Shown here piece by piece: positions 2,613-52,586 of a stretch of DNA of 64,000 bases. Position numbers and translations under genes: made by a program. Within the stretch, counting starts at the first letter, position 1. Every line of letters begins with the position of its first letter. This DNA comes from Escherichia coli (GTDB taxonomy: Bacteria; Pseudomonadota; Gammaproteobacteria; Enterobacterales; Enterobacteriaceae): the NCBI RefSeq assembly GCF_001677475.2, contig NZ_CP015229.1; one strand, given 5' to 3'. The notes under the pieces are model-generated. The model was not told the DNA's origin. It searched no databases and saw only the letters and a list, made by a program, of their open reading frames with translations.

Positions 2613-3911
2613 ATGCGTAAAATTAAAGGGTTACGTTGGTATATGATCGCACTGGTGACGCTCGGCACCGTGCTTGGTTACCTGACGCGTAACACTGTGG
2701 CGGCAGCTGCGCCAACTCTGATGGAAGAGTTAAACATCTCCACCCAACAGTATTCCTATATCATCGCAGCGTATTCTGCTGCTTATACGGTCATGCAACC
2801 GGTAGCGGGCTATGTACTGGATGTGCTGGGTACGAAAATCGGTTATGCAATGTTTGCTGTACTGTGGGCCGTGTTCTGTGGTGCAACCGCGCTGGCAGGT
2901 AGCTGGGGCGGCTTGGCTGTTGCTCGTGGTGCGGTCGGTGCCGCGGAAGCAGCGATGATCCCGGCGGGTCTGAAAGCCAGCTCCGAATGGTTCCCGGCGA
3001 AAGAGCGTTCCATCGCAGTAGGCTACTTTAACGTAGGTTCTTCGATTGGTGCGATGATTGCGCCGCCGCTGGTGGTATGGGCAATCGTGATGCACAGCTG
3101 GCAGATGGCATTTATCATCTCCGGTGCATTGAGCTTTATCTGGGCGATGGCATGGCTGATTTTCTATAAACATCCGCGCGACCAGAAGCATCTGACCGAT
3201 GAAGAACGCGACTATATTATTAATGGTCAGGAAGCCCAGCACCAGGTGAGTACGGCGAAGAAAATGTCCGTTGGTCAGATCCTGCGTAACCGTCAGTTCT
3301 GGGGTATCGCGCTGCCGCGTTTCCTGGCTGAACCGGCGTGGGGGACTTTCAACGCGTGGATCCCGCTGTTCATGTTTAAAGTTTACGGCTTTAACCTGAA
3401 AGAGATCGCGATGTTCGCCTGGATGCCGATGCTGTTTGCTGACCTCGGTTGTATCCTCGGTGGTTACCTGCCGCCGCTGTTCCAGCGTTGGTTTGGCGTA
3501 AACCTGATCGTCTCTCGTAAGATGGTCGTAACGCTGGGTGCGGTGCTGATGATTGGCCCAGGTATGATCGGTCTGTTCACCAACCCATATGTAGCGATTA
3601 TGCTGCTGTGTATTGGTGGTTTTGCTCACCAGGCACTGTCTGGCGCACTGATTACGCTCTCTTCTGACGTGTTCGGTCGTAATGAAGTCGCAACGGCAAA
3701 CGGTCTGACCGGGATGTCCGCATGGCTGGCAAGTACGCTGTTTGCGCTGGTTGTTGGTGCTCTGGCTGACACCATCGGCTTCAGCCCGCTGTTCGCAGTG
3801 CTGGCAGTGTTCGACCTGTTAGGCGCGCTGGTTATCTGGACGGTATTGCAGAACAAACCGGCGATTGAGGTGGCGCAGGAAACACATAACGATCCCGCCC
3901 CGCAACATTAA
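2613..3911 (+). CDS. exuT: Hexuronate transporter (MFS), 432 aa
   Basis: ORF 2493..3911; start at MRKIKGLRWYMIALVTLG (ATG 2613); multi-span membrane protein matching ExuT. Confidence 0.92.
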   Translation: MRKIKGLRWYMIALVTLGTVLGYLTRNTVAAAAPTLMEELNISTQQYSYIIAAYSAAYTVMQPVAGYVLDVLGTKIGYAMFAVLWAVFCGATALAGSWGGLAVARGAVGAAEAAMIPAGLKASSEWFPAKERSIAVGYFNVGSSIGAMIAPPLVVWAIVMHSWQMAFIISGALSFIWAMAWLIFYKHPRDQKHLTDEERDYIINGQEAQHQVSTAKKMSVGQILRNRQFWGIALPRFLAEPAWGTFNAWIPLFMFKVYGFNLKEIAMFAWMPMLFADLGCILGGYLPPLFQRWFGVNLIVSRKMVVTLGAVLMIGPGMIGLFTNPYVAIMLLCIGGFAHQALSGALITLSSDVFGRNEVATANGLTGMSAWLASTLFALVVGALADTIGFSPLFAVLAVFDLLGALVIWTVLQNKPAIEVAQETHNDPAPQH

Positions 3912-3934
3912 CGCTTAGCGTGAGTTTTAATGTC

Positions 3935-3965
3935 GAAGCCGCCTGTTCAGGCGGCTTCGTTGTTT
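3935..3965 (+). terminator. Intrinsic terminator after exuT (GC hairpin gaagccgcc/ggcggcttc then T-rich tract)
   Basis: Perfect 9 bp stem with 6 nt loop followed by gttgttt. Confidence 0.7.
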
Positions 3966-3988
3966 ATGCGTTTGCCCGGCCTATAGGG

Positions 3989-5074
3989 TTAATTGATGGT
4001 TGGTAGAGATGGAGTAAAAATTACCGATAGTTTCCCCATGTAATACCCGGCCTGTTTATCCATCACGCTAAATTTATCGACCGCCAGGGTTAATGGCGTC
4101 GGCACACACATGACAGCGTAACGAATTCCTGGCAGCACAACCGGACGAACGCGCTTCAGGTTGATGCTGTTCCAGACCATATTTTCATTGTTGCGAACAT
4201 CAATTTGCCCGCCCGTTTCCGGGTTATACATTTTTACCCGATAATCAATGCGTTCTGAGGCATCTGTCGATGTTCCTCCCTGACGATAGATCGAGAAGTC
4301 GCCATCTCTTCGTCCGGCAGCCGGGCGACCTTCATCTTTAAGCTGGATTTCATAACTGATAGCGTTGCCGTTAAAACCATCGTACAGGCACATATCCAGC
4401 GTGGTCAGATCCTGAGCATAGTTACTGCCATTGACGCTCCCCGTCGGGTGTAGATCCAACTGTACCCGTGGCGTGGCGTGGGCAAACTCAGGAAAGAAGA
4501 TATCGATATGGTTGGGATCGAGCGTATTAAGCGTGATATCCGCAACATAATCTGTTCCAGGAGTGGAAAAACGTAATTTAGCAGAACCTTCCCAGACGCC
4601 GCCGATTGGTAATTTTTTCATTTCGGCTTGTTCAAGATACAGGGTTACCGGCTTTGCAGTGGCAAGATGTTGAACATTATCATTACCCTTGCAGTAATAG
4701 CCATTACCATCAGTCAAATTCAGTTGCTTGCTCCATCCCTTGCATGGCCCTTCATCCCAGACTTCTGCGTTCATATAGCCCGTCAGTTTCACAGGCCAAC
4801 GCATACCGCTGCGCTTTTCAGTCAAGTAAATCTGCACTTTTGTCGTGTTTCCAGATGATGTGCAGGTCTGCTGCATATCAGAGAAGTTGCACTGATACCA
4901 TGCCCATGTAGTGTTGTAGTTGTACGCCGGTGGGGCTTCTTTGTTCCAGAAATAGTAATTCGCCCTCCCCGTCGCCAAATCGTAAGTTACATCCGCCGTA
5001 ACATTTTGGGCTGCCTGAACACCCGCAACCGAGCCCCAAAAGCAAAATAGTATGGCAATCAATCGCTTTCTCAT
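3989..5074 (-). CDS. Fimbrial tip/minor adhesin, class 5 (CfaE/CooD-like), 361 aa with signal peptide
   Basis: Size and motifs (KLPIGGVW, DLHPTG, DMCLYDGF, GYYMGKLSVIFTPS) resemble CfaE/CooD as recalled; last gene of a chaperone-pilin-usher-adhesin operon. Confidence 0.8.
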   Translation of the reverse strand: MRKRLIAILFCFWGSVAGVQAAQNVTADVTYDLATGRANYYFWNKEAPPAYNYNTTWAWYQCNFSDMQQTCTSSGNTTKVQIYLTEKRSGMRWPVKLTGYMNAEVWDEGPCKGWSKQLNLTDGNGYYCKGNDNVQHLATAKPVTLYLEQAEMKKLPIGGVWEGSAKLRFSTPGTDYVADITLNTLDPNHIDIFFPEFAHATPRVQLDLHPTGSVNGSNYAQDLTTLDMCLYDGFNGNAISYEIQLKDEGRPAAGRRDGDFSIYRQGGTSTDASERIDYRVKMYNPETGGQIDVRNNENMVWNSINLKRVRPVVLPGIRYAVMCVPTPLTLAVDKFSVMDKQAGYYMGKLSVIFTPSLPTIN

Positions 5075-7755
5075 GGTGCAACCTCCCTTTGCGCCGTTTG
5101 CACACTTTCGCGTAATTTAGGCTGTTTTAACTGCGCCTGAACCTGAATCGACTCTGGCAATTGCGAATAACTCACGACGCTACAAGTCACATCGCCGCTG
5201 TAACGAATGCTGGCGCGTTTCTTCACAACAGTCAGCGGACATTTAAGGAATTCGTGTCCGGAAAGCAGATACAGTTCTTTATCATTGCCGCTAATTTCCA
5301 GCGTAAATCCGCCATCTTCAGCCACCAATAACATGGTGCTGTTCAGACCAATCAGCGGGAATTTCTCTACTGATGCTGGCAATAACAAGCGACCAATATA
5401 GTTGTAGTTAAAGCTGGCAGTGACTTCGCGATAACGTAACTTACCGGGCAGCAACATTAATTCCCGGTTTCCCGCGCCATTGATAATATTGGTTGTTCCC
5501 TGCTGATTGCCCTGGTTGCTGTCCCTGACGTCAACAAAGCCCGACTGGAATCCAGCATAGGGGAACAACACACTGTCACTTTGACCAAGTTGCAGAGTTC
5601 TGCTGCCCGCAACCCGAGCTTCGAATTGCAGATCCTGGCTCTCTTCATCCTGTTCAGTAAATCCTTTTACATCGACTAATACAGCGCCGAGCAGATCATC
5701 TGTTCCACTGGCTCCCAGATTAATTCCGTAACGACTCACCGCCAGTGTGGAACTGTAAGTCCCTGTAAAGGCAGAAAGATGATCATGGTTCTTGCGATCG
5801 TAACTGTCTGATACGGTTCCGTTGAGATTACCGTACTGCCCTTCCCAACGACCATTAACCGCACTGTTTATGGTATCGGTGTTCAGGCCACCGACGGTTA
5901 CGCCAAGTTCTTTATGGCTGAATGAATCATTATAAAAGGTATGCGATAACTGCCATGAAGTTTGGTCGCCATCCTGATCGCTATAGCGATAGTCAGTCGA
6001 AACATTGGTTGAGTGACTGTTATTATTGCTGTCCATCGTTGGTGTATCAGATAACGAAAACGATAAGTACAATCCGTTGTCGTCGTTATCTCCGCCGTTG
6101 TCGTTACGATGGAAAACCCCGACAGAAGTGCTCAAAATCCAGTCACGCATTATAAAAGCGCGAGACGCGCTAAGCTGTACGGTTTCAGAAATACTTTGCG
6201 CAGAAGTCTGGCGAAGATAGTTATTTTCAAAACTCTGCTGTTTGTCCCAGCGTAAGCTGTCGTCGGTGTTATTTTGCGTGCGGGTATAACCCAGCATCAG
6301 GTTCCAGCCGATAAGATTCTGTGAAATCGTAGCGGATATGCTTTCATAACAGCTTAAGGCGTTGTAGCTATCTCTGCTGTCGGTTGTACAAGCATCTCCG
6401 TCGGAGTTGGTACGATAAAAGCCCAGCGTCGGCCATCCCGAATTACTCCAGTTAACCTGCTGCATATCACCTTTGCCGCCATCGTCATTGCGGAACAGGC
6501 TGGCACCTATGGCAAGATTCCCCGCCCCGCCTAAATCCGCCGTCCAGTTATTACCTAACTCGAAAGCATTCACATCATCGGCATTCGCCAGCCCTGCGTA
6601 GAGCTCATATTGTGGATGTAACGGCAGGCGAAAACCCAGTTGATAAGCTGAACTTTCGTCATCGGCAGCCTGGGAGGTGGTTTTACCGGCCTGTAAGAAC
6701 CACTGCGCATTTCCGTCCGTCAGCCCCCCTGTTTTGGTAAAAGGGACAAGTTCAGTGCGGGTGAGTTGGTTGTTCTCATAAACTTTTAACGCCACGCTGT
6801 AGCTGCCTGGCGGAAAGGAACCAGTATCAATAAATTGCGAACCACTATTGAGATAAAACGATCCCAGAAGTTGTTCATTACGATAAGCGTCAACACGAGA
6901 ATTGCGCGAAAGCAGGACCATTACTGGCGTTCCTTGCTGACTCTGCGCCTGGTTTAAATAACTGAGTGTTGACCCGATACGCATTCCATCGATTGCACCG
7001 AGTGGCAGAAAGTTAAAAGTAAAATTCCCGCCTTGTGCATTAAATAGCGTGCGGTTGTCCATTCGCCCCGCCTGCACATAATAACGACGTAAAAAATCAT
7101 AACGATAATAGAGATCGCTGACATCAGCATTATTATCGCTGACATCTTCTGCCTCATAGCCATTGAAATTCCAGTGCCCGCCAATATAACTATTCTCTGT
7201 GACACCCAGCGCACCATTGCCCTGAATGGAGAACGATTGGTAATCATCCTGCACCAGCACGTTAATATCCTGCTGATGAATAAATGCATTAATCGCGTTT
7301 CTGTCTGGATTTAAATATAGCGATTTTGAATTTAACGAGGAACTCCATTGGGGATTCAGAAAGAGGGTGGCGGAACTCTCTTCATCATTAAAAATAATGT
7401 CAACAGAATCGGTATTGAGAAAGCCACATCCTGAATCGGTCTGCGCAAAACCACAAGCCAGTTCACCATGACGCACCAGTGGTTGTGCCAGTCTCGCTTT
7501 TACGGCTTGAGTGATTTTTTGGTCTTTGGTATCCAGCTCCAGCTTATTATATAAACTTGCTGAATCCAGAAATGTTACGGCATCAAGATTAACCATTGCA
7601 TAATATTTACCGAGACTTTTCCCGGCATAATAGACTTCAATATACTCCTGCTGTCCCTGTGCAATAACCTCAAACCCAGCGGGAATTTTAGTTAATGCTG
7701 CCTTTGCCGGGCTGAGACTCGCCAGGATCAAAAGAGCCAGTAATTTTTTATCCAT
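5071..7755 (-). CDS. Fimbrial outer-membrane usher (CooC/CfaC-like), about 894 aa
   Basis: ORF 5071..7809 (912 aa); start preferred at MDKKLLALLILASLSPAKA (signal peptide, ATG at 7755, RBS agggt); large beta-barrel-type protein between pilin and adhesin genes. Confidence 0.85.
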   Translation of the reverse strand: MDKKLLALLILASLSPAKAALTKIPAGFEVIAQGQQEYIEVYYAGKSLGKYYAMVNLDAVTFLDSASLYNKLELDTKDQKITQAVKARLAQPLVRHGELACGFAQTDSGCGFLNTDSVDIIFNDEESSATLFLNPQWSSSLNSKSLYLNPDRNAINAFIHQQDINVLVQDDYQSFSIQGNGALGVTENSYIGGHWNFNGYEAEDVSDNNADVSDLYYRYDFLRRYYVQAGRMDNRTLFNAQGGNFTFNFLPLGAIDGMRIGSTLSYLNQAQSQQGTPVMVLLSRNSRVDAYRNEQLLGSFYLNSGSQFIDTGSFPPGSYSVALKVYENNQLTRTELVPFTKTGGLTDGNAQWFLQAGKTTSQAADDESSAYQLGFRLPLHPQYELYAGLANADDVNAFELGNNWTADLGGAGNLAIGASLFRNDDGGKGDMQQVNWSNSGWPTLGFYRTNSDGDACTTDSRDSYNALSCYESISATISQNLIGWNLMLGYTRTQNNTDDSLRWDKQQSFENNYLRQTSAQSISETVQLSASRAFIMRDWILSTSVGVFHRNDNGGDNDDNGLYLSFSLSDTPTMDSNNNSHSTNVSTDYRYSDQDGDQTSWQLSHTFYNDSFSHKELGVTVGGLNTDTINSAVNGRWEGQYGNLNGTVSDSYDRKNHDHLSAFTGTYSSTLAVSRYGINLGASGTDDLLGAVLVDVKGFTEQDEESQDLQFEARVAGSRTLQLGQSDSVLFPYAGFQSGFVDVRDSNQGNQQGTTNIINGAGNRELMLLPGKLRYREVTASFNYNYIGRLLLPASVEKFPLIGLNSTMLLVAEDGGFTLEISGNDKELYLLSGHEFLKCPLTVVKKRASIRYSGDVTCSVVSYSQLPESIQVQAQLKQPKLRESVQTAQREVAP

Positions 7756-7780
7756 GGCAACCCTGTAATCCATAACAACG

Positions 7781-7820
7781 ACTAAAATAGTTAAAATAAG
7801 GGAGGACAAGCCCCCCCTTT
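7781..7820 (-). terminator. Intra-operon hairpin (GGGGGG/CCUCCC stem, U-rich tail) between the pilin and usher genes; possible attenuator
   Basis: Minus-strand transcript ggggggg-cttgtc-ctccctt followed by auuuuaacuauuuu; position matches pilin/usher attenuators seen in other chaperone-usher operons. Confidence 0.4.
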
Positions 7821-7846
7821 ATTACGTATTAATTCTGTTATCCGGA

Positions 7847-8347
7847 TTAGATATCCTGGGACAGATAGATGCTTACCACACCACGGTAAATACCGGTTTC
7901 CAGTACACCTTTGGTGGTCTGAGCAAACATCAGGTTTTTAGCCAAAGAACCGTTGGTTAAAGCATCGGAAGCAAAAATTTTGGTTGCTTCGAAAGTGGTA
8001 GCGGCATCAGACTTGATTTCAGTACCACCCCAGGTCACAGTCAGCGGAACAGTTTTGCTGCCGTCCAGGTTATGAACCAGTTGCGCAGGGGAAACCAACT
8101 GCATTTTAATGTCTTTAGTAACATCGTTAGACCAAATTTTAGTCATCAACTGATAAGATTGCAGACCCTGACCCGGCAGATATTGCATTTCAACTGCTTT
8201 CGGCAGTGCGCTGTTATCGGTTTGCGTCATATCCAGGGCGGCATCAACGTTAGCTGTTACAGTAATATCTTTTTGTACTGCTAACGCGGAGCCTGCTACA
8301 GAGAATAACGCTGCTACCAGAAGAGATTTTGCAAATGCCTTTTTCAT
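7847..8347 (-). CDS. Major fimbrial subunit, class 5 (CooA/CfaB-like pilin), 166 aa with signal peptide
   Basis: ITVTANVDAALDMTQTDNSALP and C-terminal YRGVVSIYLSQ resemble CooA ISVTASVDPTVDLLQSDGSALP ... YQGLVSIIL as recalled. Confidence 0.85.
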   Translation of the reverse strand: MKKAFAKSLLVAALFSVAGSALAVQKDITVTANVDAALDMTQTDNSALPKAVEMQYLPGQGLQSYQLMTKIWSNDVTKDIKMQLVSPAQLVHNLDGSKTVPLTVTWGGTEIKSDAATTFEATKIFASDALTNGSLAKNLMFAQTTKGVLETGIYRGVVSIYLSQDI

Positions 8348-8376
8348 TACTATTCCTTCGTTTATGACAATGATAA

Positions 8377-9093
8377 TTAATGGATCGCCAGCTCAAACTC
8401 GCCATTATCCTTAGTGATCCAGTTATTATATTTGACAACGATCTTGTCGTAGCCAGATATGCTTTCAAGATTTATTTCCTGACCAGGGAAGATATTTTTA
8501 TTTACGGTCTGCATCTTACAATTATCTTTGCTATTATTTTTGCAATAAGCGATCGTTAAAAGTTTTAAACGTTGATTCCCTGCATTAAATAATTTTTTGG
8601 CAGGATTTACTTCTAACTTAGCAATAGGTTGTTGGGGTGGAACACTAACAACAATCCCCCAAATCAAGTTAACTGTTAACTGCATAGAGAGATCTTTTTT
8701 ATCTGTGGCAACGTCATCAATACTGGGAACTGCTTCAAATTTAACGCGGTAATTTTTCTCTTTTTGCTCTGGTTCCATTGCGACAAAGCGCACGGTTTTG
8801 CTGCTACCGGCTGGTAAGGCGAATTTGGGTGGCATAACGACCAGATGATTTGCATCACCGGATTTAATCTCAACTTCATTTTCCTGAGGCGTCGATGGAT
8901 TATCTATACGGAATACTGTCGCCTTGATATACTGAACTTCATTACTTTTAGATATTACACGAACGTTGCCTTCACCCTGACTATTAATAGAAACAGCCAT
9001 AGGATAAACAGTCATATTTGACTGTGCAAAAAAAGGAGCGAACACGAATAAAAGCGGCGTAAGCCGTGATAAGAGTTTAATTTTCGCCACCAT
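8377..9093 (-). CDS. Periplasmic fimbrial chaperone, class 5 (CooB/CfaA-like), 238 aa
   Basis: IYPMAVS, KSNEVQYIKATV and YRVKFEAV resemble CooB IYPISKD, KSKEIQYIKIYT and YRVYFEAV as recalled; first gene of the operon. Confidence 0.85.
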   Translation of the reverse strand: MVAKIKLLSRLTPLLFVFAPFFAQSNMTVYPMAVSINSQGEGNVRVISKSNEVQYIKATVFRIDNPSTPQENEVEIKSGDANHLVVMPPKFALPAGSSKTVRFVAMEPEQKEKNYRVKFEAVPSIDDVATDKKDLSMQLTVNLIWGIVVSVPPQQPIAKLEVNPAKKLFNAGNQRLKLLTIAYCKNNSKDNCKMQTVNKNIFPGQEINLESISGYDKIVVKYNNWITKDNGEFELAIH

Positions 9094-9342
9094 ATAGAAT
9101 TGATCTTACAAAATTGTTTCAAAAAAGTTAGTGCATTAGAAATGTAGATTTATTGTAAGTCAATATAAAAAATCATTTTTAGTTAATATTAATTTAAAAA
9201 GCGAAAAATTAAGTTACTGAAACATAGTAATTTTCACAATAGCGACGCTTAATTTTTAGGAATTTATAAATATTCACAATGTTAATTAAATACATTATTT
9301 CAATCACCATATTTATATATGAACAATGGCATACCCATAAAT
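9094..9342 (-). promoter_or_regulatory. Strongly AT-rich leader/promoter region of the fimbrial operon
   Basis: About 250 bp of very low GC with A/T tracts immediately upstream of the chaperone start; exact promoter elements not assigned. Confidence 0.4.
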
Positions 9343-9362
9343 AAAGTGGTATGATAACTTTG
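9343..9362. promoter_or_regulatory. Candidate ExuR operator upstream of exuR (aaagtggtatgataactttg)
   Basis: Matches the 2364..2383 motif at about 16 of 20 positions; sits 27 bp upstream of the exuR start. Confidence 0.45.
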
Positions 9363-9388
9363 TCCGCATTCCATTCCGGGAGACGCAT

Positions 9389-10165
9389 ATGGAAATCTCT
9401 GAACCACGCCGTTTGTACCAACAACTTGCTGCTGACCTGAAAGAGCGCATTGAGCAGGGCGTCTATCTGGTGGGTGATAAACTGCCCGCCGAACGTTTTA
9501 TTGCCGATGAAAAAAACGTCAGCCGAACGGTAGTTCGTGAAGCCATCATCATGCTGGAAGTTGAAGGCTATGTGGAGGTGCGTAAAGGTTCAGGTATTCA
9601 CGTGGTTTCCAACCAGCCGCGCCATCAGCAGGCGGCTGACGATAATATGGAATTTGCCAATTACGGCCCGTTTGAACTGTTACAGGCTCGCCAGCTTATC
9701 GAGAGCAATATTGCCGAGTTTGCCGCAACCCAGGTGACCAAGCAGGACATCATGAAATTGATGGCCATCCAGGAGCAGGCTCGCGGCGAACAATGCTTCC
9801 GCGATTCCGAGTGGGATTTGCAGTTCCACATTCAGGTAGCCCTGGCGACGCAGAACTCCGCCCTGGCGGCTATCGTTGAAAAAATGTGGACCCAACGTAG
9901 CCATAACCCGTACTGGAAAAAACTACACGAACACATTGATGCCCGTACTGTCGATAACTGGTGCGATGACCACGATCAGATCCTCAAGGCGTTAATTCGC
10001 AAAGATCCTCATGCTGCTAAGCTGGCAATGTGGCAGCATCTGGAAAACACCAAAATCATGTTATTTAACGAAACCAGCGACGATTTCGAGTTCAATGCCG
10101 ACCGCTATCTGTTCGCAGAAAACCCGGTAGTGCATCTCGATACGGCCACCAGCGGCAGCAAATGA
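9389..10165 (+). CDS. exuR: Hexuronate regulon repressor ExuR (GntR/FadR family), 258 aa
   Basis: [37 protein letters not shown]...; length matches ExuR. Confidence 0.93.
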
Positions 10166-10177
10166 AATTTCCATCCG

Positions 10178-10205
10178 ACAGGCGCTGCAATGCGCCTGTT
10201 TGCTT
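10178..10205 (+). terminator. Intrinsic terminator after exuR
   Basis: acaggcgctgcaatgcgcctgt hairpin followed by ttgctt. Confidence 0.6.
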
Positions 10206-32547: not shown

Positions 32548-32924
<377 letters not shown>

Positions 32925-39237: not shown

Positions 39238-39333
39238 GTTTAAAGTCCCCACGTCCATTAATAATGCATTTGCATTACCTTAGTTCAAGCTTATAATTTG
39301 AGCAGAAAACAGGCTGTAAAAGGACAGTGAATC

Positions 39334-39669
39334 ATGCCCGCTAATGCTCGCTCTCACGCTGTACTGACCACTGAATCAAAGGTCACGATACGCGGACAAA
39401 CAACTATCCCCGCGCCAGTGCGTGAGGCCTTAAAACTGAAGCCAGGCCAGGACAGCATTCATTACGAAATTCTGCCTGGTGGGCAAGTATTTATGTGCCG
39501 ACTGGGAGATGAACAGGAGGATCATACTATGAATGCATTTTTGCGTTTTCTGGATGCAGATATCCAGAACAACCCGCAAAAAACTCGTCCATTCAACATT
39601 CAACAAGGAAAGAAACTTGTCGCTGGCATGGACGTCAACATTGATGATGAGATTGGCGACGACGAATAA
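39334..39669 (+). CDS. prlF: Type II antitoxin PrlF (SohA), 111 aa
   Basis: MPANARSHAVLTTESKVTIRGQTTIPAPVREALKLKPGQ (AbrB/SpoVT-type DNA-binding N-terminus), acidic C-terminus. Confidence 0.9.
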   Translation: MPANARSHAVLTTESKVTIRGQTTIPAPVREALKLKPGQDSIHYEILPGGQVFMCRLGDEQEDHTMNAFLRFLDADIQNNPQKTRPFNIQQGKKLVAGMDVNIDDEIGDDE

Positions 39670-40133
39670 TGGATTTTCCACAAAGGGTTAATGGTTGGGC
39701 GCTATATGCTCATCCCTGTTTTCAGGAAACCTACGACGCTTTAGTTGCCGAAGTCGAGACATTAAAGGGAAAAGATCCTGAAAATTATCAGAGAAAAGCC
39801 GCCACAAAGTTATTGGCGGTAGTCCATAAAGTGATTGAGGAGCATATCACGGTCAATCCATCATCACCGGCATTCCGTCATGGCAAGTCGTTAGGCTCTG
39901 GGAAAAATAAAGACTGGTCACGGGTAAAATTTGGTGCTGGTCGTTATCGTCTCTTCTTTCGTTATAGTGAAAAAGAGAAAGTCATCATTCTGGGATGGAT
40001 GAACGATGAAAACACTCTGCGCACCTACGGTAAAAAAACAGATGCCTATACCGTATTCAGCAAAATGTTAAAAAGAGGACATCCTCCTGCCGACTGGGAA
40101 ACCCTCACCCGAGAGACAGAAGAAACCCATTGA
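39669..40133 (+). CDS. yhaV: Type II toxin YhaV (ribonuclease), 154 aa
   Basis: MDFPQRVNGWALYAHPCFQETYDALVAEVE...; start overlaps the prlF stop (ATGA). Confidence 0.9.
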   Translation: MDFPQRVNGWALYAHPCFQETYDALVAEVETLKGKDPENYQRKAATKLLAVVHKVIEEHITVNPSSPAFRHGKSLGSGKNKDWSRVKFGAGRYRLFFRYSEKEKVIILGWMNDENTLRTYGKKTDAYTVFSKMLKRGHPPADWETLTRETEETH

Positions 40134-50124: not shown

Positions 50125-50905
50125 AATCAGTAAAAAAGATATCACCCGTCTGGGCTTTCGTTCGTCGCTGCTGCAAGCGAGCTTTAACTACGAAAGGATG
50201 CAGGCGGGCGGTTTTACCTGGGCGATGTTGCCGATCCTGAAAAAGATTTATAAGGATGACAAACCGGGCCTAAGCGCGGCGATGAAAGATAACCTCGAAT
50301 TTATTAATACCCACCCAAATCTCGTCGGATTCCTGATGGGGTTATTAATTTCGATGGAAGAAAAAGGAGAAAACCGCGACACCATTAAAGGCCTCAAAGT
50401 GGCACTGTTTGGCCCAATCGCCGGGATTGGCGATGCGATTTTCTGGTTTACTTTGTTGCCGATTATGGCGGGAATTTGCTCATCATTTGCCAGCCAGGGA
50501 AACCTGCTGGGGCCGATTCTATTTTTCGCCGTTTACCTGCTTATCTTTTTCCTGCGCGTCGGCTGGACCCACGTCGGTTATTCAGTCGGCGTGAAGGCGA
50601 TCGATAAAGTGCGAGAGAACTCGCAGATGATTGCCCGTTCGGCAACCATCCTCGGGATCACGGTAATCGGCGGGCTGATCGCTTCGTATGTGCATATTAA
50701 CGTGGTGACATCGTTTGCCATCGACAGTACCCACAGCGTCGCGCTGCAGCAGGATTTCTTCGATAAAGTCTTCCCGAACATTTTACCGATGGCCTACACC
50801 CTGCTGATGTATTACTTCCTGCGGGTGAAAAAAGCGCATCCGGTGCTGTTAATCGGCGTGACGTTTGTGCTCTCTATTGTTTGTTCCGCATTCGGCATTT
50901 TGTAA
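50114..50905 (+). CDS. agaD: Galactosamine PTS IID component AgaD, 263 aa
   Basis: ORF 49967..50905; start at MGSEISKKDITRLGFRSSLLQASFNYERMQ (ATG 50114, overlaps the agaC 3' end). Confidence 0.9.
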   Translation: MGSEISKKDITRLGFRSSLLQASFNYERMQAGGFTWAMLPILKKIYKDDKPGLSAAMKDNLEFINTHPNLVGFLMGLLISMEEKGENRDTIKGLKVALFGPIAGIGDAIFWFTLLPIMAGICSSFASQGNLLGPILFFAVYLLIFFLRVGWTHVGYSVGVKAIDKVRENSQMIARSATILGITVIGGLIASYVHINVVTSFAIDSTHSVALQQDFFDKVFPNILPMAYTLLMYYFLRVKKAHPVLLIGVTFVLSIVCSAFGIL

Positions 50906-51673
50906 ATGGAACGAGGCACTGCTTCTGGCGGTGCCTCTTTACTTAAGGAATTTCATCCTGTGCAAACCCTTCAGCAAGTTGAAAACTATACGGCGTTAAG
51001 TGAACGTGCCAGCGAATATTTATTGGCCGTGATCCGTAGCAAACCGGATGCCGTGATTTGCCTGGCGACCGGAGCCACGCCATTACTGACGTATCATTAT
51101 CTGGTAGAAAAAATCCACCAGCAGCAGGTTGATGTCAGCCAACTAACCTTCGTCAAGCTCGACGAATGGGTGGATCTGCCATTAACTATGCCTGGCACCT
51201 GCGAAACTTTCCTGCAACAGCATATCGTGCAGCCGCTGGGGCTACGTGAAGACCAGCTCATCAGCTTTCGCTCCGAAGAGATAAATGAGACAGAGTGCGA
51301 ACGGGTAACGAACCTGATTGCGCGCAAAGGCGGTCTGGATTTATGCGTTCTCGGATTGGGGAAAAACGGTCATCTTGGGCTGAACGAACCGGGAGAAAAC
51401 CTGCAACCGACCTGCCATATCAGTCAACTTGATGCCAGAACACAGCAACATGAGATGTTAAAAACCGCGGGCCGTCCCGTGACTCGTGGGATCACCTTAG
51501 GCCTGAAGGATATTCTCAATGCCCGCGAAGTTTTGTTACTGGTGACTGGCGAAGGAAAGCAGGATGCGACAGAACGTTTTCTCACGGCTAAAGTCTCCAC
51601 CGCTATCCCGGCTTCGTTTTTATGGCTGCATAACTATTTCACATGCATGATTGATGAGATGTGTCGTCGTTAA
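50906..51673 (+). CDS. agaI: Putative galactosamine-6-phosphate deaminase/isomerase AgaI (NagB-like), 255 aa
   Basis: ATG directly follows the agaD stop; MERGTASGGASLLKEFHPVQTLQQVENYTALSERASEYLLAV. Confidence 0.88.
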   Translation: MERGTASGGASLLKEFHPVQTLQQVENYTALSERASEYLLAVIRSKPDAVICLATGATPLLTYHYLVEKIHQQQVDVSQLTFVKLDEWVDLPLTMPGTCETFLQQHIVQPLGLREDQLISFRSEEINETECERVTNLIARKGGLDLCVLGLGKNGHLGLNEPGENLQPTCHISQLDARTQQHEMLKTAGRPVTRGITLGLKDILNAREVLLLVTGEGKQDATERFLTAKVSTAIPASFLWLHNYFTCMIDEMCRR

Positions 51674-51675
51674 CT

Positions 51676-51719
51676 CGCCTGCTACAGGCGTTGCAACGCT
51701 ATTCCTGCTGCGACGCCTG
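51676..51719. terminator. Inverted repeat between convergent agaI and rsmI (possible bidirectional terminator)
   Basis: acaggcgt ... acgcctgt 8 bp arms with a long loop; weak as a classic terminator. Confidence 0.3.
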
Positions 51720-51722
51720 TAA

Positions 51723-52586
51723 TCACTCTCCCTGCTGCTCCAGTGCATACTTATACAGCGCATTTTTCTTCACGCCGTGAATTTCTGCGGCCAGCGCCGC
51801 CGCTTTTTTCAGCGGCAGTTCTGCCTGTAGCAGCGCCAGCGTGCGCAGGGCATCGGCGGGTAAGTCTTCTTCCTGTGCTTTATGGCCTTCGACAATCAGT
51901 ACCATTTCGCCTTTGCGACGGTTTTCATCTTCTTTGACCCACGCCAGCAGCTCGCCAACGGGCGCGCCGTGAATGGTTTCCCAGGTTTTGGTCAGCTCAC
52001 GCGCCAGAACGACGTAGCGGGATTCGCCTAATACCGCAACGATATCTTCCAGGCTATCTAACAGACGGTGGGTAGATTCATAAAAAATCAGCGTGCGCGG
52101 CTCCGCTTCAATGGCTTTTAGCGCATCACGGCGGCCTTTTGATTTGGCAGGTAAAAAGCCTTCATAACAAAAACGATCGGATGGTAAACCCGCGGCGCTT
52201 AACGCAGTGATAGCAGCACACGGCCCGGGTAGCGGCACCACGAGAATCCCCGCTTCACGGCAGGTACGCACCAGATGGTAGCCAGGATCGTTAATTAGCG
52301 GCGTTCCGGCATCGGAAACCAGCGCAATGTTTTGCCCCTCTTGCAGCTTCGCCAGCAGCGTTTCGGCTTTTTGTTGTTCGTTATGGTCGTGCAGCGCAAA
52401 CAACCGAGCATTAATCCCAAAATGTTGCAGCAATAAACCGGTGTGACGCGTATCCTCGGCGGCAATCAGATCAACGGCCTGTAATACCTCCAACGCACGC
52501 TGGGTGATATCCGCCAGATTGCCGATTGGCGTCGGTACAATGTAAAGCTGGCCCTGAGAATTATCCGCCGATTGGTGTTGTTTCAT
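51723..52586 (-). CDS. rsmI: 16S rRNA C1402 2'-O-methyltransferase RsmI, 287 aa
   Basis: [48 protein letters not shown]. Confidence 0.92.

Follow-up and report, generated by a model that had tools for sequence, protein, structure and literature searches.

A mosaic allele of the predicted class 5 fimbrial operon between exuT and exuR of Escherichia coli

The colonisation factors CFA/I, CS1, CS2, CS4, CS14, CS17 and CS19 of enterotoxigenic Escherichia coli (ETEC) are plasmid-borne (CS2 excepted), flanked by IS elements and activated by Rns/CfaD. [quoted passage not shown] Later papers attribute the 'CS1-like' type to Wurpel 2013, and the operon serves as a fimbrial typing marker, whose reported link to infection of the lower rather than the upper urinary tract is a correlation only (PMC8249706). 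In STEC, usher and major-subunit transcripts have been detected and were higher in HUS-associated isolates, again as a correlation only (PMC6033998). In the literature searched we found no experiment that demonstrates pili, haemagglutination or a receptor for the exuT-exuR operon.

Here we analysed a 64-kb stretch of E. coli DNA (the window) in which four co-directional minus-strand genes had been predicted between exuT and exuR. All four open reading frames were present at the predicted positions, intact and without internal stops, and each product carries a signal-peptide-like N-terminus (coordinates in the table). Their lengths equal those assigned by PGAP to the homologous genes of other E. 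coli genomes or differ by a few residues, near-identical contigs show the same genomic context around the operon, and the exact sequences of all four proteins are already in NCBI, correctly named. The gene order is chaperone, major pilin, usher and minor pilin/tip adhesin, as expected for class 5. Judged by its sequence, the operon is a chromosomal member of the class 5 (alpha-clade) alternate chaperone-usher systems with the cooBACD/cfaABCE arrangement.

With high confidence we assign it, as an intact allele, to the chromosomal 'CS1-like'/Eaf (eafABCD) fimbrial operon of E. coli, a class 5 pilus system. It shares with that operon the four genes, their order, the site between exuT and exuR that defines Eaf, and the PGAP product names. 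The 'CS1-like' copies of ATCC 8739 and IAI1, with the same products at the identical site, resemble the present copy at the protein level (usher 90-91%, pilin 89-93% and chaperone 82-96% identical). The ATCC 8739 operon is collinear with ours as an ortholog, with 85.3% DNA identity over the whole segment and with 91% and 93% identity in the usher and pilin proteins, inside the span of 71-100% published for carriers (PMC2608844).

Features of the exuT-exuR interval in the window
Feature	Coordinates	Strand	Evidence or remark
exuT intrinsic terminator hairpin	3934..3959	+	operon-specific DNA starts directly after; K-12 homology ends at 3957
Minor pilin/tip adhesin, CfaE/CblD family, 361 aa	3989..5074	-	PDB, AF2/Foldseek, Pfam
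Predicted N-terminal receptor-binding (adhesin) domain, ~residues 22-200	4475..5011	-	hypervariable; module exchanged between alleles
Outer-membrane usher, TcfC/CfaC type, 894 aa	5071..7755	-	NCBIfam, Pfam, tblastn
G+C-rich hairpin followed by T-run, between pilin stop and usher start	7798..7819	-	terminator-like scan
Major pilin, 166 aa, signal peptide residues 1-23	7847..8347	-	PDB, Pfam, NCBIfam
Periplasmic chaperone, CfaA/CooB type, first operon gene, 238 aa	8377..9093	-	PDB, NCBIfam, Pfam
Operon-specific upstream region, 20.9% G+C, presumed promoter/regulatory region	9094..9342	-	composition
Right junction, K-12 homology resumes	9343..9388	+	just upstream of exuR -10 element and start codon

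The predicted family assignments were borne out. All four products found their best matches among class 5 proteins (NCBIfam, Pfam, phmmer against the PDB, tblastn) rather than in the gamma/pi clade, the comparison brought no hidden frameshift to light, and the best solved structures were CfaA, CfaB and CfaE. The chaperone, which has a PapD_N domain in Pfam, matched CfaA (4ncd, E 2.1e-36), followed by 4y2o and 6k73, while the classical chaperones SfaE and EcpB reached merely 1e-4 to 1e-7, placing it with the CfaA/CooB type. The pilin matched CfaB (1.7e-22), the CS17 major subunit (2e-14) and CooA (2.6e-10). Its alignment with CfaB begins at query residue 24, which corresponds to CfaB mature residue 1, and the mature N-terminus VQKDITVTANVD is the presumed donor strand; an identical protein has Fimbrial_CS1 (PF04449) on record, as befits the CS1/CFA/I pilin family. 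The usher carries TcfC (PF16967) and Usher_TcfC (PF17271), which makes it a CfaC/TcfC-type usher and not one of the FimD/PapC gamma/pi type; tblastn aligned 95-96% of its length with CfaC, CsdC and CsuC of ETEC plasmids at 29-30% identity, and its sequence matched none of the solved structures. For the adhesin, which has a CfaE_2nd domain, phmmer aligned residues 61-360 with CfaE (2hb0, E 6.6e-29). Its AF2 model (pLDDT 86.7) overlays CfaE: the top Foldseek matches were all CfaE, over the full length (E 8e-25, TM 0.72-0.75), whereas FimH, PapG and LpfD stayed below TM 0.3, identifying it as a two-domain CfaE-like protein with an adhesin and a pilin domain.

Outside E. coli, the Tcf fimbria of Salmonella Typhi (tcfABCD) is likewise a chromosomal alpha-clade system, and supplies the best NCBIfam models for chaperone, usher and adhesin. 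However, it lies at a different locus, and all matches to the TcfA-D equivalogs fall below their cutoffs: TcfA for the chaperone (2.5e-40, 138 bits against a cutoff of 500), TcfB as the second match of the pilin (99 against 384), TcfC as the sole match of the usher (2.8e-165, 552 against 1428) and TcfD for the adhesin (108 against 589), with TcfD being ~29-36% identical to the present adhesin. The best NCBIfam match of the pilin is CblA of the Burkholderia cenocepacia cable pilus (cblBACD), whose adhesin belongs to the same CfaE/CblD family; this match is also below the equivalog cutoff (1e-36, 126 bits against 225), and comes from another organism and another locus. The nearest relatives beyond the genus are chromosomal alpha-fimbrial operons of Klebsiella oxytoca/michiganensis, Kluyvera, Citrobacter and Buttiauxella, which share the order of the four genes and likewise have a hairpin separating pilin and usher, but differ in chromosomal site (by lysA/lysR-like genes in Klebsiella) and have adhesins only 40-46% identical to ours.

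The operon occupies the exuT-exuR interval in ~1,900 of 5,426 complete E. coli genomes (~35%), and a K-12-like empty junction is found in 3,503 (~65%). Every one of the 1,921 matching places in E. coli lies on the chromosome, in agreement with the original prediction, and none on a plasmid; one apparent plasmid copy was a mislabelled chromosome fragment. The locus had been put forward as possibly new, a claim to be given up if most E. coli genomes carried it. They do not, but the operon is common enough for the novelty to be gone. The locus has been published under both names (PMC2608844, PMC3032704), and its proteins are in NCBI by name. The operon, its site and its class are thus already known.

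Alleles of the operon are under purifying selection, with dN/dS of 0.05-0.10 and dS of 0.46-1.47, as compared with 0.14-0.16 in exuT and yqjA. Such values across alleles with dS above 0.5 indicate that the proteins have long been under selection, which, together with the intactness of all four reading frames here and the STEC transcripts (PMC6033998), argues against a cryptic, decaying remnant whose intact-looking genes are never expressed and have no function in the present strain. Several observations would nevertheless suit a remnant. Copies elsewhere are frequently broken, by a chaperone nonsense mutation in O121:H19 (codon 8), by IS1 or IS2 insertions (in 8 of the best 30 matches) and by truncation of the adhesin in Shigella, so the operon is dispensable in places, and 65% of strains do without it altogether. 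The AT-rich upstream region is typical of silenced fimbrial operons, and within it no promoter stood out above chance: the single sigma-70-like match (9323-9294) is weak, and such matches are no commoner there than in shuffled sequence. On balance, we consider a remnant unlikely.

The boundaries of the operon and its distribution bear on its age. The operon is bounded by exuT (432 aa; true start 2613, end 3911) and exuR (9389-10165; NCBIfam ExuR equivalog, 562 bits against a cutoff of 396). Alignment with K-12 shows 5,385 bp of operon-specific DNA (3958-9342) in place of 31 bp, and a promoter-like match (ATGGCA-18-TATGAT, 9326-9355) spans the right junction. An insertion of about 5.4 kb into a core locus had been proposed (at 3960-9388); size and limits were close, but the recent acquisition that such wording suggests did not hold, since the same site is occupied in Escherichia albertii and in a cryptic Escherichia clade (Escherichia sp. 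E4742), and the alleles (dS 0.5-1.5) far predate the E. coli backbone. As predicted, the operon has no flanking mobility genes, with no IS, integrase, tRNA or flanking direct repeat found at the junctions or in the segment, and no linked AraC-type regulator was found among the neighbouring genes annotated at homologous loci.

A class 5 operon that had moved horizontally into exuT-exuR in recent times, with an ETEC plasmid or a different genus as possible sources, would account for the G+C content of the operon (44.4% against 50.3% in the surroundings, and 38.5% in the chaperone gene) and for its absence from the majority of E. coli. It would also fit the Klebsiella ortholog at an unrelated locus, which indicates that the operon changed sites sometime in enterobacterial history. 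Such an island is, however, very unlikely given the clean junctions, the exclusively chromosomal copies, the occupied site in other Escherichia, the age of the alleles and the merely 29-30% identity to ETEC plasmid ushers. Recent acquisition is largely refuted, and the data are compatible with a gain long ago, at the base of the genus Escherichia. The presence or absence of the operon and its allelic variation form an old polymorphism that spans the genus. That it is a true functional equivalent of CFA/I (cfaABCE) or CS1 (cooBACD), marking the strain as diarrhoeagenic, is scarcely credible: gene order, protein families and the two-domain CfaE adhesin fold are shared, but the proteins are only ~25-30% identical, the operon is chromosomal with junctions free of IS, has no known Rns/CfaD dependence, resides in commensal and laboratory strains (SE11, HS, IAI1, ATCC 8739, W), lies in a 64-kb window where annotated homologous regions show no Rns/CfaD-like regulator or toxin genes, and encodes an adhesin in which the residue aligned with the CfaE arginine discussed below varies among alleles.

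The present copy is a minority allele, with DNA identity of at most 88.6% to every copy in the 5,426 complete RefSeq genomes. It matches the operon of strain E69 almost exactly throughout except at ~4500-5100, and that of strain 2020CK-00188 at 100% over 4200-4800. In this chimera, an operon of the E69 type carries an adhesin domain of the 2020CK-00188 type. More generally, divergence among the alleles is very high and their sequences are mosaic, with the receptor-binding domain moving between them as a module. Within this domain, DNA identity to other alleles drops to 49-76%, and clustering at 90% gives at least 17 sequence types. The adhesin dN is 0.31-0.44 over codons 41-160 against 0.015-0.095 over codons 201-360, and the whole protein is 71-85% identical to most alleles and 97% to one.

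The variability extends to a position of interest for binding. An arginine of CfaE and CooD, R181 (R181/R182 of CfaE), is essential for adhesion by CFA/I and CS1. R168 of the present adhesin aligns with it, but across a four-residue gap. This position is R in three of ten Escherichia alleles, ours included, and H or Q in the rest, and it is absent from the conserved columns of a 60-sequence alignment. Because the aligned residue is H or Q in most alleles, the mode of binding may differ.

A more novel reading, to which we give somewhat less than even probability, is that the locus is a long-lived trans-species Escherichia polymorphism under balancing or diversifying selection. Homologous recombination would move the receptor-binding domain as a cassette from one operon backbone to another, giving lineages different host or tissue receptor specificities and dragging exuT and exuR along. 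Under a trans-species polymorphism, the present locus would be a clear example, with an operon of the E69 type and an adhesin domain of the 2020CK type on a B1-like backbone. The searched literature yielded no paper on such a population structure, nor on a receptor for the pilus.

A class 5 pilus known from its genes is widespread, in roughly one in three E. coli genomes, in commensals and pathogens alike, with a highly variable receptor-binding domain that is exchanged between strains. With operon, position and class published and the four proteins already named correctly by automatic annotation, the operon carries little weight as a discovery. Knowing which receptors the adhesin variants bind, and what switches the operon on, would help to explain gut colonisation and host range, and would clarify the correlations with lower rather than upper urinary tract infection (PMC8249706) and with higher expression in HUS-associated STEC (PMC6033998).

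The analysis itself shows gene content, homology, fold, intactness and distribution, together with purifying selection and mosaicism; from homology with CFA/I we infer how the pilus would be expressed, assembled, regulated and used in adhesion. In the periplasm, donor-strand complementation would let the chaperone capture both major pilin and tip adhesin, and the chaperone-adhesin complex would prime the usher. Major pilin subunits would then be added by donor-strand exchange through the N-terminal VQKDITVTANVD strand, yielding a filament tipped by a single two-domain CfaE-like adhesin. The upstream region, at 21% G+C, is probably silenced by H-NS in laboratory conditions, and no obvious Shine-Dalgarno sequence was seen at the chaperone start. 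The usher reading frame can be extended to a TTG at 7809; the ATG at 7755, as chosen in the original prediction, gives the 894-residue product annotated elsewhere. The usher stop and the adhesin start overlap by 4 bp (ATGA), which may couple translation of the two genes. The hairpin between pilin and usher is proposed to be a partial terminator or attenuator that sets the pilin:usher ratio, and probably cuts read-through, leading to an excess of pilin. Its position is kept in all eight Escherichia alleles examined, with variable loops, and the orthologous Klebsiella operon has a hairpin of different sequence at the same place.

The ORF listing recovered four co-directional minus-strand genes between exuT and exuR, at exactly the positions of the original prediction. 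No hidden frameshift was found, all four reading frames being full length without internal stops; each product begins with a signal-peptide-like segment, and a 4-bp overlap joins the usher stop to the adhesin start. The flanks carry uxaC, exuT (432 aa, true start 2613) and exuR, whose product scores 562 bits with the NCBIfam ExuR equivalog (cutoff 396).

Coordinates of the fimbrial genes and other features in the window
Feature	Position	Strand	Remarks
chaperone	8377-9093	minus	238 aa; ORF listing
major pilin	7847-8347	minus	166 aa; ORF listing
usher	5071-7755	minus	894 aa; ORF listing; ORF extendable to TTG at 7809
tip adhesin	3989-5074	minus	361 aa; ORF listing
G+C-rich hairpin then T-run, pilin stop to usher start	7819-7798	minus	terminator-like scan
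rnpB (RNase P RNA)	32548-32924	minus	Rfam, 319.7 bits; sole Rfam match in the window
prlF-yhaV toxin-antitoxin pair, downstream of garD	~39300-40100	plus	homology with comparison sequence L015

The proposed classification as class 5 (alpha-clade) fimbriae is upheld, because all four products belong to families of that type. Among the sequences of solved structures, the best match of the chaperone was CfaA (2.1e-36), the pilin matched CfaB (1.7e-22), CS17 and CooA, and the adhesin matched the CFA/I tip adhesin CfaE (6.6e-29, residues 61-360); the usher had no match by sequence in this set. The best NCBIfam models were the TcfA chaperone, TcfC usher, TcfD adhesin and CblA pilin (TcfB second), all scoring under their equivalog cutoffs, and the precomputed Pfam domains of identical proteins were PapD_N; Fimbrial_CS1; TcfC and Usher_TcfC; and CfaE_2nd. 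The usher is distant from its counterparts on ETEC plasmids, with 29-30% identity to CfaC, CsdC (CS19) and CsuC (CS14). The adhesin was modelled with AlphaFold2 from a 60-sequence alignment (mean pLDDT 86.7, pTM 0.78), and the best PDB matches of the model were all CfaE chains, aligned along its whole length (E 8e-25, TM 0.72-0.75, 26% identity). Placement in the gamma or pi clades is ruled out, as the usher had no FimD/PapC-type NCBIfam match and the adhesin model reached TM < 0.3 with FimH, PapG and LpfD, and likewise with CupB6. The mature pilin N-terminus is VQKDITVTANVD, and its alignment begins at residue 1 of mature CfaB; in CFA/I the N-terminal segment of the pilin is the donor strand. 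By homology with CFA/I, the chaperone would stabilise subunits through donor-strand complementation, a chaperone-adhesin complex would start assembly at the usher, and donor-strand exchange would polymerise the major pilin into a filament with one adhesin at its tip; the N-terminal domain of this adhesin would bind a host receptor.

Comparison of the exuT-exuR interval across Escherichia genomes, as the original prediction had proposed, showed that the operon is an old, genus-wide presence/absence polymorphism. The operon was matched in 1,918 of 5,426 complete E. coli genomes, always chromosomal and at the exuT-exuR site, and an uninterrupted K-12-type junction was found in 3,503 of the same genomes; occupied (~35%) and empty (~65%) sites together make up almost the whole collection. 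Matches covered at least 80% of the operon length, at 82-88.6% identity, in 481 of the 1,918; in nearly all the others the match runs from the usher on (79% of the query at 88% identity), their adhesin gene having diverged beyond the reach of megablast. The age and genus-wide extent of the polymorphism are indicated by an E. albertii assembly and Escherichia sp. E4742, both of which have a copy at the identical position between the same neighbours. The nearest relatives outside Escherichia, in Klebsiella, differ in having an adhesin only 40-46% identical and a locus unrelated to exuT-exuR. An usher peptide scan of genome contigs returned only 4 loci, although its exact patterns give it little bearing on absence in other species.

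Two PLSDB records hold a ~91% identical operon copy. A plasmid-borne operon was rejected, since the record examined, NZ_MG591698.1 (353,691 bp, typed as non-mobilizable), carries uxaA-uxaC-exuT, the operon and exuR-yqjA-mzrA-yqjCDEK, and is apparently a piece of chromosome that was deposited under a plasmid label. The 5,741-bp contig SFGN01000125.1 ("MAG: Lachnospiraceae bacterium") contains this Escherichia operon (usher 90%, DNA 83% versus the window), and its label is almost certainly a binning error.

Relative to K-12 MG1655, aligned homology stops at 3957, right after the exuT terminator hairpin, and restarts at 9343, shortly before the exuR -10 element; 5,385 bp in the window thus replace 31 bp in K-12. 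The insertion originally described therefore stands as a difference from K-12, but not as a recent event in a single lineage, given the site shared with E. albertii and E4742. The G+C content of the operon segment is 44.4%, versus 50.3% for the window, and is 20.9% in the 249 bp upstream of the chaperone gene. A mobile-element signature was ruled out, since IS elements, an integrase, a tRNA and terminal direct repeats are all lacking from the segment. A promoter-like exuR site (ATGGCA-18-TATGAT, with TG; 9326-9355, plus strand) spans the right junction, its -35 lying within operon-specific DNA and its -10 within DNA shared with K-12. Because of this split, the exuR promoter may differ between strains with and without the operon.

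The locus is not new: the fimbrial type has been described, is already annotated and is common in E. coli. The suggestion of novelty is thus refuted by published CS1-like reports and correctly named NCBI entries, as well as by the occupancy of ~35%. A "CS1-like fimbrial operon" (ECSE_3375-3378) was reported in the commensal SE11 by Oshima et al. 2008, conserved in E24377A, HS, ATCC 8739, 536 and SMS-3-5 with 71-100% protein identity (PMC2608844). The E. coli W genome paper (Archer et al. 2011) locates eafABCD in the exuT-exuR interval and describes the eaf cluster as having no tip-adhesin gene (PMC3032704). In this operon type the product of gene four is, by solved-structure and model matches, a CfaE-family two-domain adhesin, so low sequence similarity seems to lie behind that statement. 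Later papers count CS1-like among the chaperone-usher types of Wurpel et al. 2013, whose own text does not name it in words, and it is a PCR typing marker (PMC8249706); CS1-like usher and major-subunit transcripts were higher in HUS-associated STEC (PMC6033998), and eafABCD appears in a list of adhesin operons (PMC11394720). The literature searched contained genome, typing and transcriptome mentions only, with no functional work on the pili, receptor or regulation of eafABCD/CS1-like fimbriae. All four window proteins are present in NCBI as exact sequences (e.g. ANO91020-ANO91022), under the names "CfaE/CblD family pilus tip adhesin", "TcfC E-set like domain-containing protein", "CS1 type fimbrial major subunit" and "fimbria/pilus periplasmic chaperone". 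In the assembly collection, 76 indexed blocks contain the exact adhesin sequence, and two same-context contigs match the window at 99.97-100% over 9 kb.

Between strains, the ExuT and ExuR proteins are 99-100% identical; identities within the operon are 71-97% for the adhesin, 90-91% for the usher, 89-93% for the pilin and 82-96% for the chaperone, and usher alleles other than that of the window are 94-100% identical among themselves. By the Nei-Gojobori method with 10-11 alleles, dS was 0.46-1.47 for pilin, usher and adhesin, versus 0.16 for exuT and 0.14 for yqjA, and dN/dS of the operon genes was 0.05-0.10. The operon proteins have therefore been kept by purifying selection for far longer than the surrounding backbone has diverged. 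A first chaperone dN/dS of 0.36 was dropped as an artefact of the O121:H19 allele, in which codon 8 is a nonsense codon. Raised synonymous divergence extends into the 3' half of exuT and into exuR (88-95% DNA identity; 88-97% to other E. coli across 2800-3911 and 9389-10200), with an exuR dS of 0.39 versus 0.14-0.16 for yqjA and whole exuT; these flanking core genes are apparently carried along by hitch-hiking with the diverged fimbrial alleles.

A 150-bp sliding comparison showed that the window copy is a chimera. It matches E. coli E69 at 97-100% over ~3750-4500 and 5100-9750, falling to 52-87% over 4500-5100. Strain 2020CK-00188 is 100% identical to it over 4200-4800, but only 75-91% across most of the usher, and in the uxaC-exuT backbone (1650-2700) IAI1 matches at 99-100%. 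The simplest explanation is homologous recombination through the conserved flanks, and also within the conserved pilin domain and usher. At 7200-7600 (usher codons ~61-180), the window and E69 share only 75-81% DNA identity with all other alleles, with dS > 2.5 and dN 0.08-0.15, well above the rest of the gene, which suggests that this N-terminal part is a separate, older or foreign recombination tract.

Of what remains, the adhesin domain is of most interest, as its alleles may form a modular, trans-species structure. Divergence is greatest in the N-terminal receptor-binding domain, where codons 41-160 have dN 0.31-0.44 and omega 0.2-0.3, versus dN 0.015-0.095 in the pilin domain, and Escherichia adhesins form at least 17 clusters at 90% clustering. 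The residue aligned with CfaE R181/R182 is arginine in the window, O121 and 2020CK-00188 and histidine or glutamine in other alleles, and the arginine is not conserved in the 60-sequence family alignment. Because it varies, a CfaE-type binding pocket may not be general.

The position of the hairpin between pilin and usher is conserved across the eight Escherichia alleles examined, its loop being variable, and the Klebsiella operon has a hairpin of unrelated sequence at the equivalent place. Partial terminators have been proposed to provide pilin excess in other fimbrial operons; by analogy, we infer a putative partial terminator that would keep pilin in excess over usher and adhesin. Upstream of the operon, sigma-70-like matches were at the level of shuffled sequence (11 sites versus 11.0), so that no promoter can be named. 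A pap-like Dam/Lrp phase switch is unsupported, as the single upstream GATC (9102) does not fit methylation switching, and no invertible-element recombinase was found near the operon. A 19-nt imperfect inverted repeat lies at 9195-9213 / 9248-9266. The AT-rich composition upstream would fit H-NS silencing, which is common for cryptic E. coli fimbriae (Wurpel et al. 2013).

Decay of the operon recurs in some lineages. In O121:H19 FWSEC0006, with its early nonsense codon in the chaperone gene (6988-7704 of L004, the locus from this strain), the PGAP product is a 212-aa protein from a downstream Met; as it lacks the signal peptide, the operon is probably non-functional in that STEC lineage. Many occupied E. 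coli loci (such as matches H3, H17, H21-H24, H26 and H47) are disrupted by IS1, IS2 or ISVsa5, as is the case in 8 of the 30 best operon matches, and truncated adhesin, usher or chaperone genes occur in Shigella boydii, S. sonnei and S. flexneri.

Positions 19000-64000 carry ordinary E. coli core genes (cyuPA, the tdc operon, yhaBC, gar genes, the aga cluster, and lpoA to mtr). The top identity of stretches from this region to complete RefSeq E. coli genomes was 98.2-98.5%, suggesting poor coverage of the host lineage by complete genomes. The aga cluster (agaVWEF-nagA-agaS-kbaY-agaBCDI) looks complete, and agaI is directly followed by rsmI at ~50900-51800 (homology with comparison sequence L021, 7907-9587). 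In K-12 this position is that of the yraHIJK fimbrial operon, which is thus absent at this place in the window. Both rnpB and the prlF-yhaV pair are ordinary.
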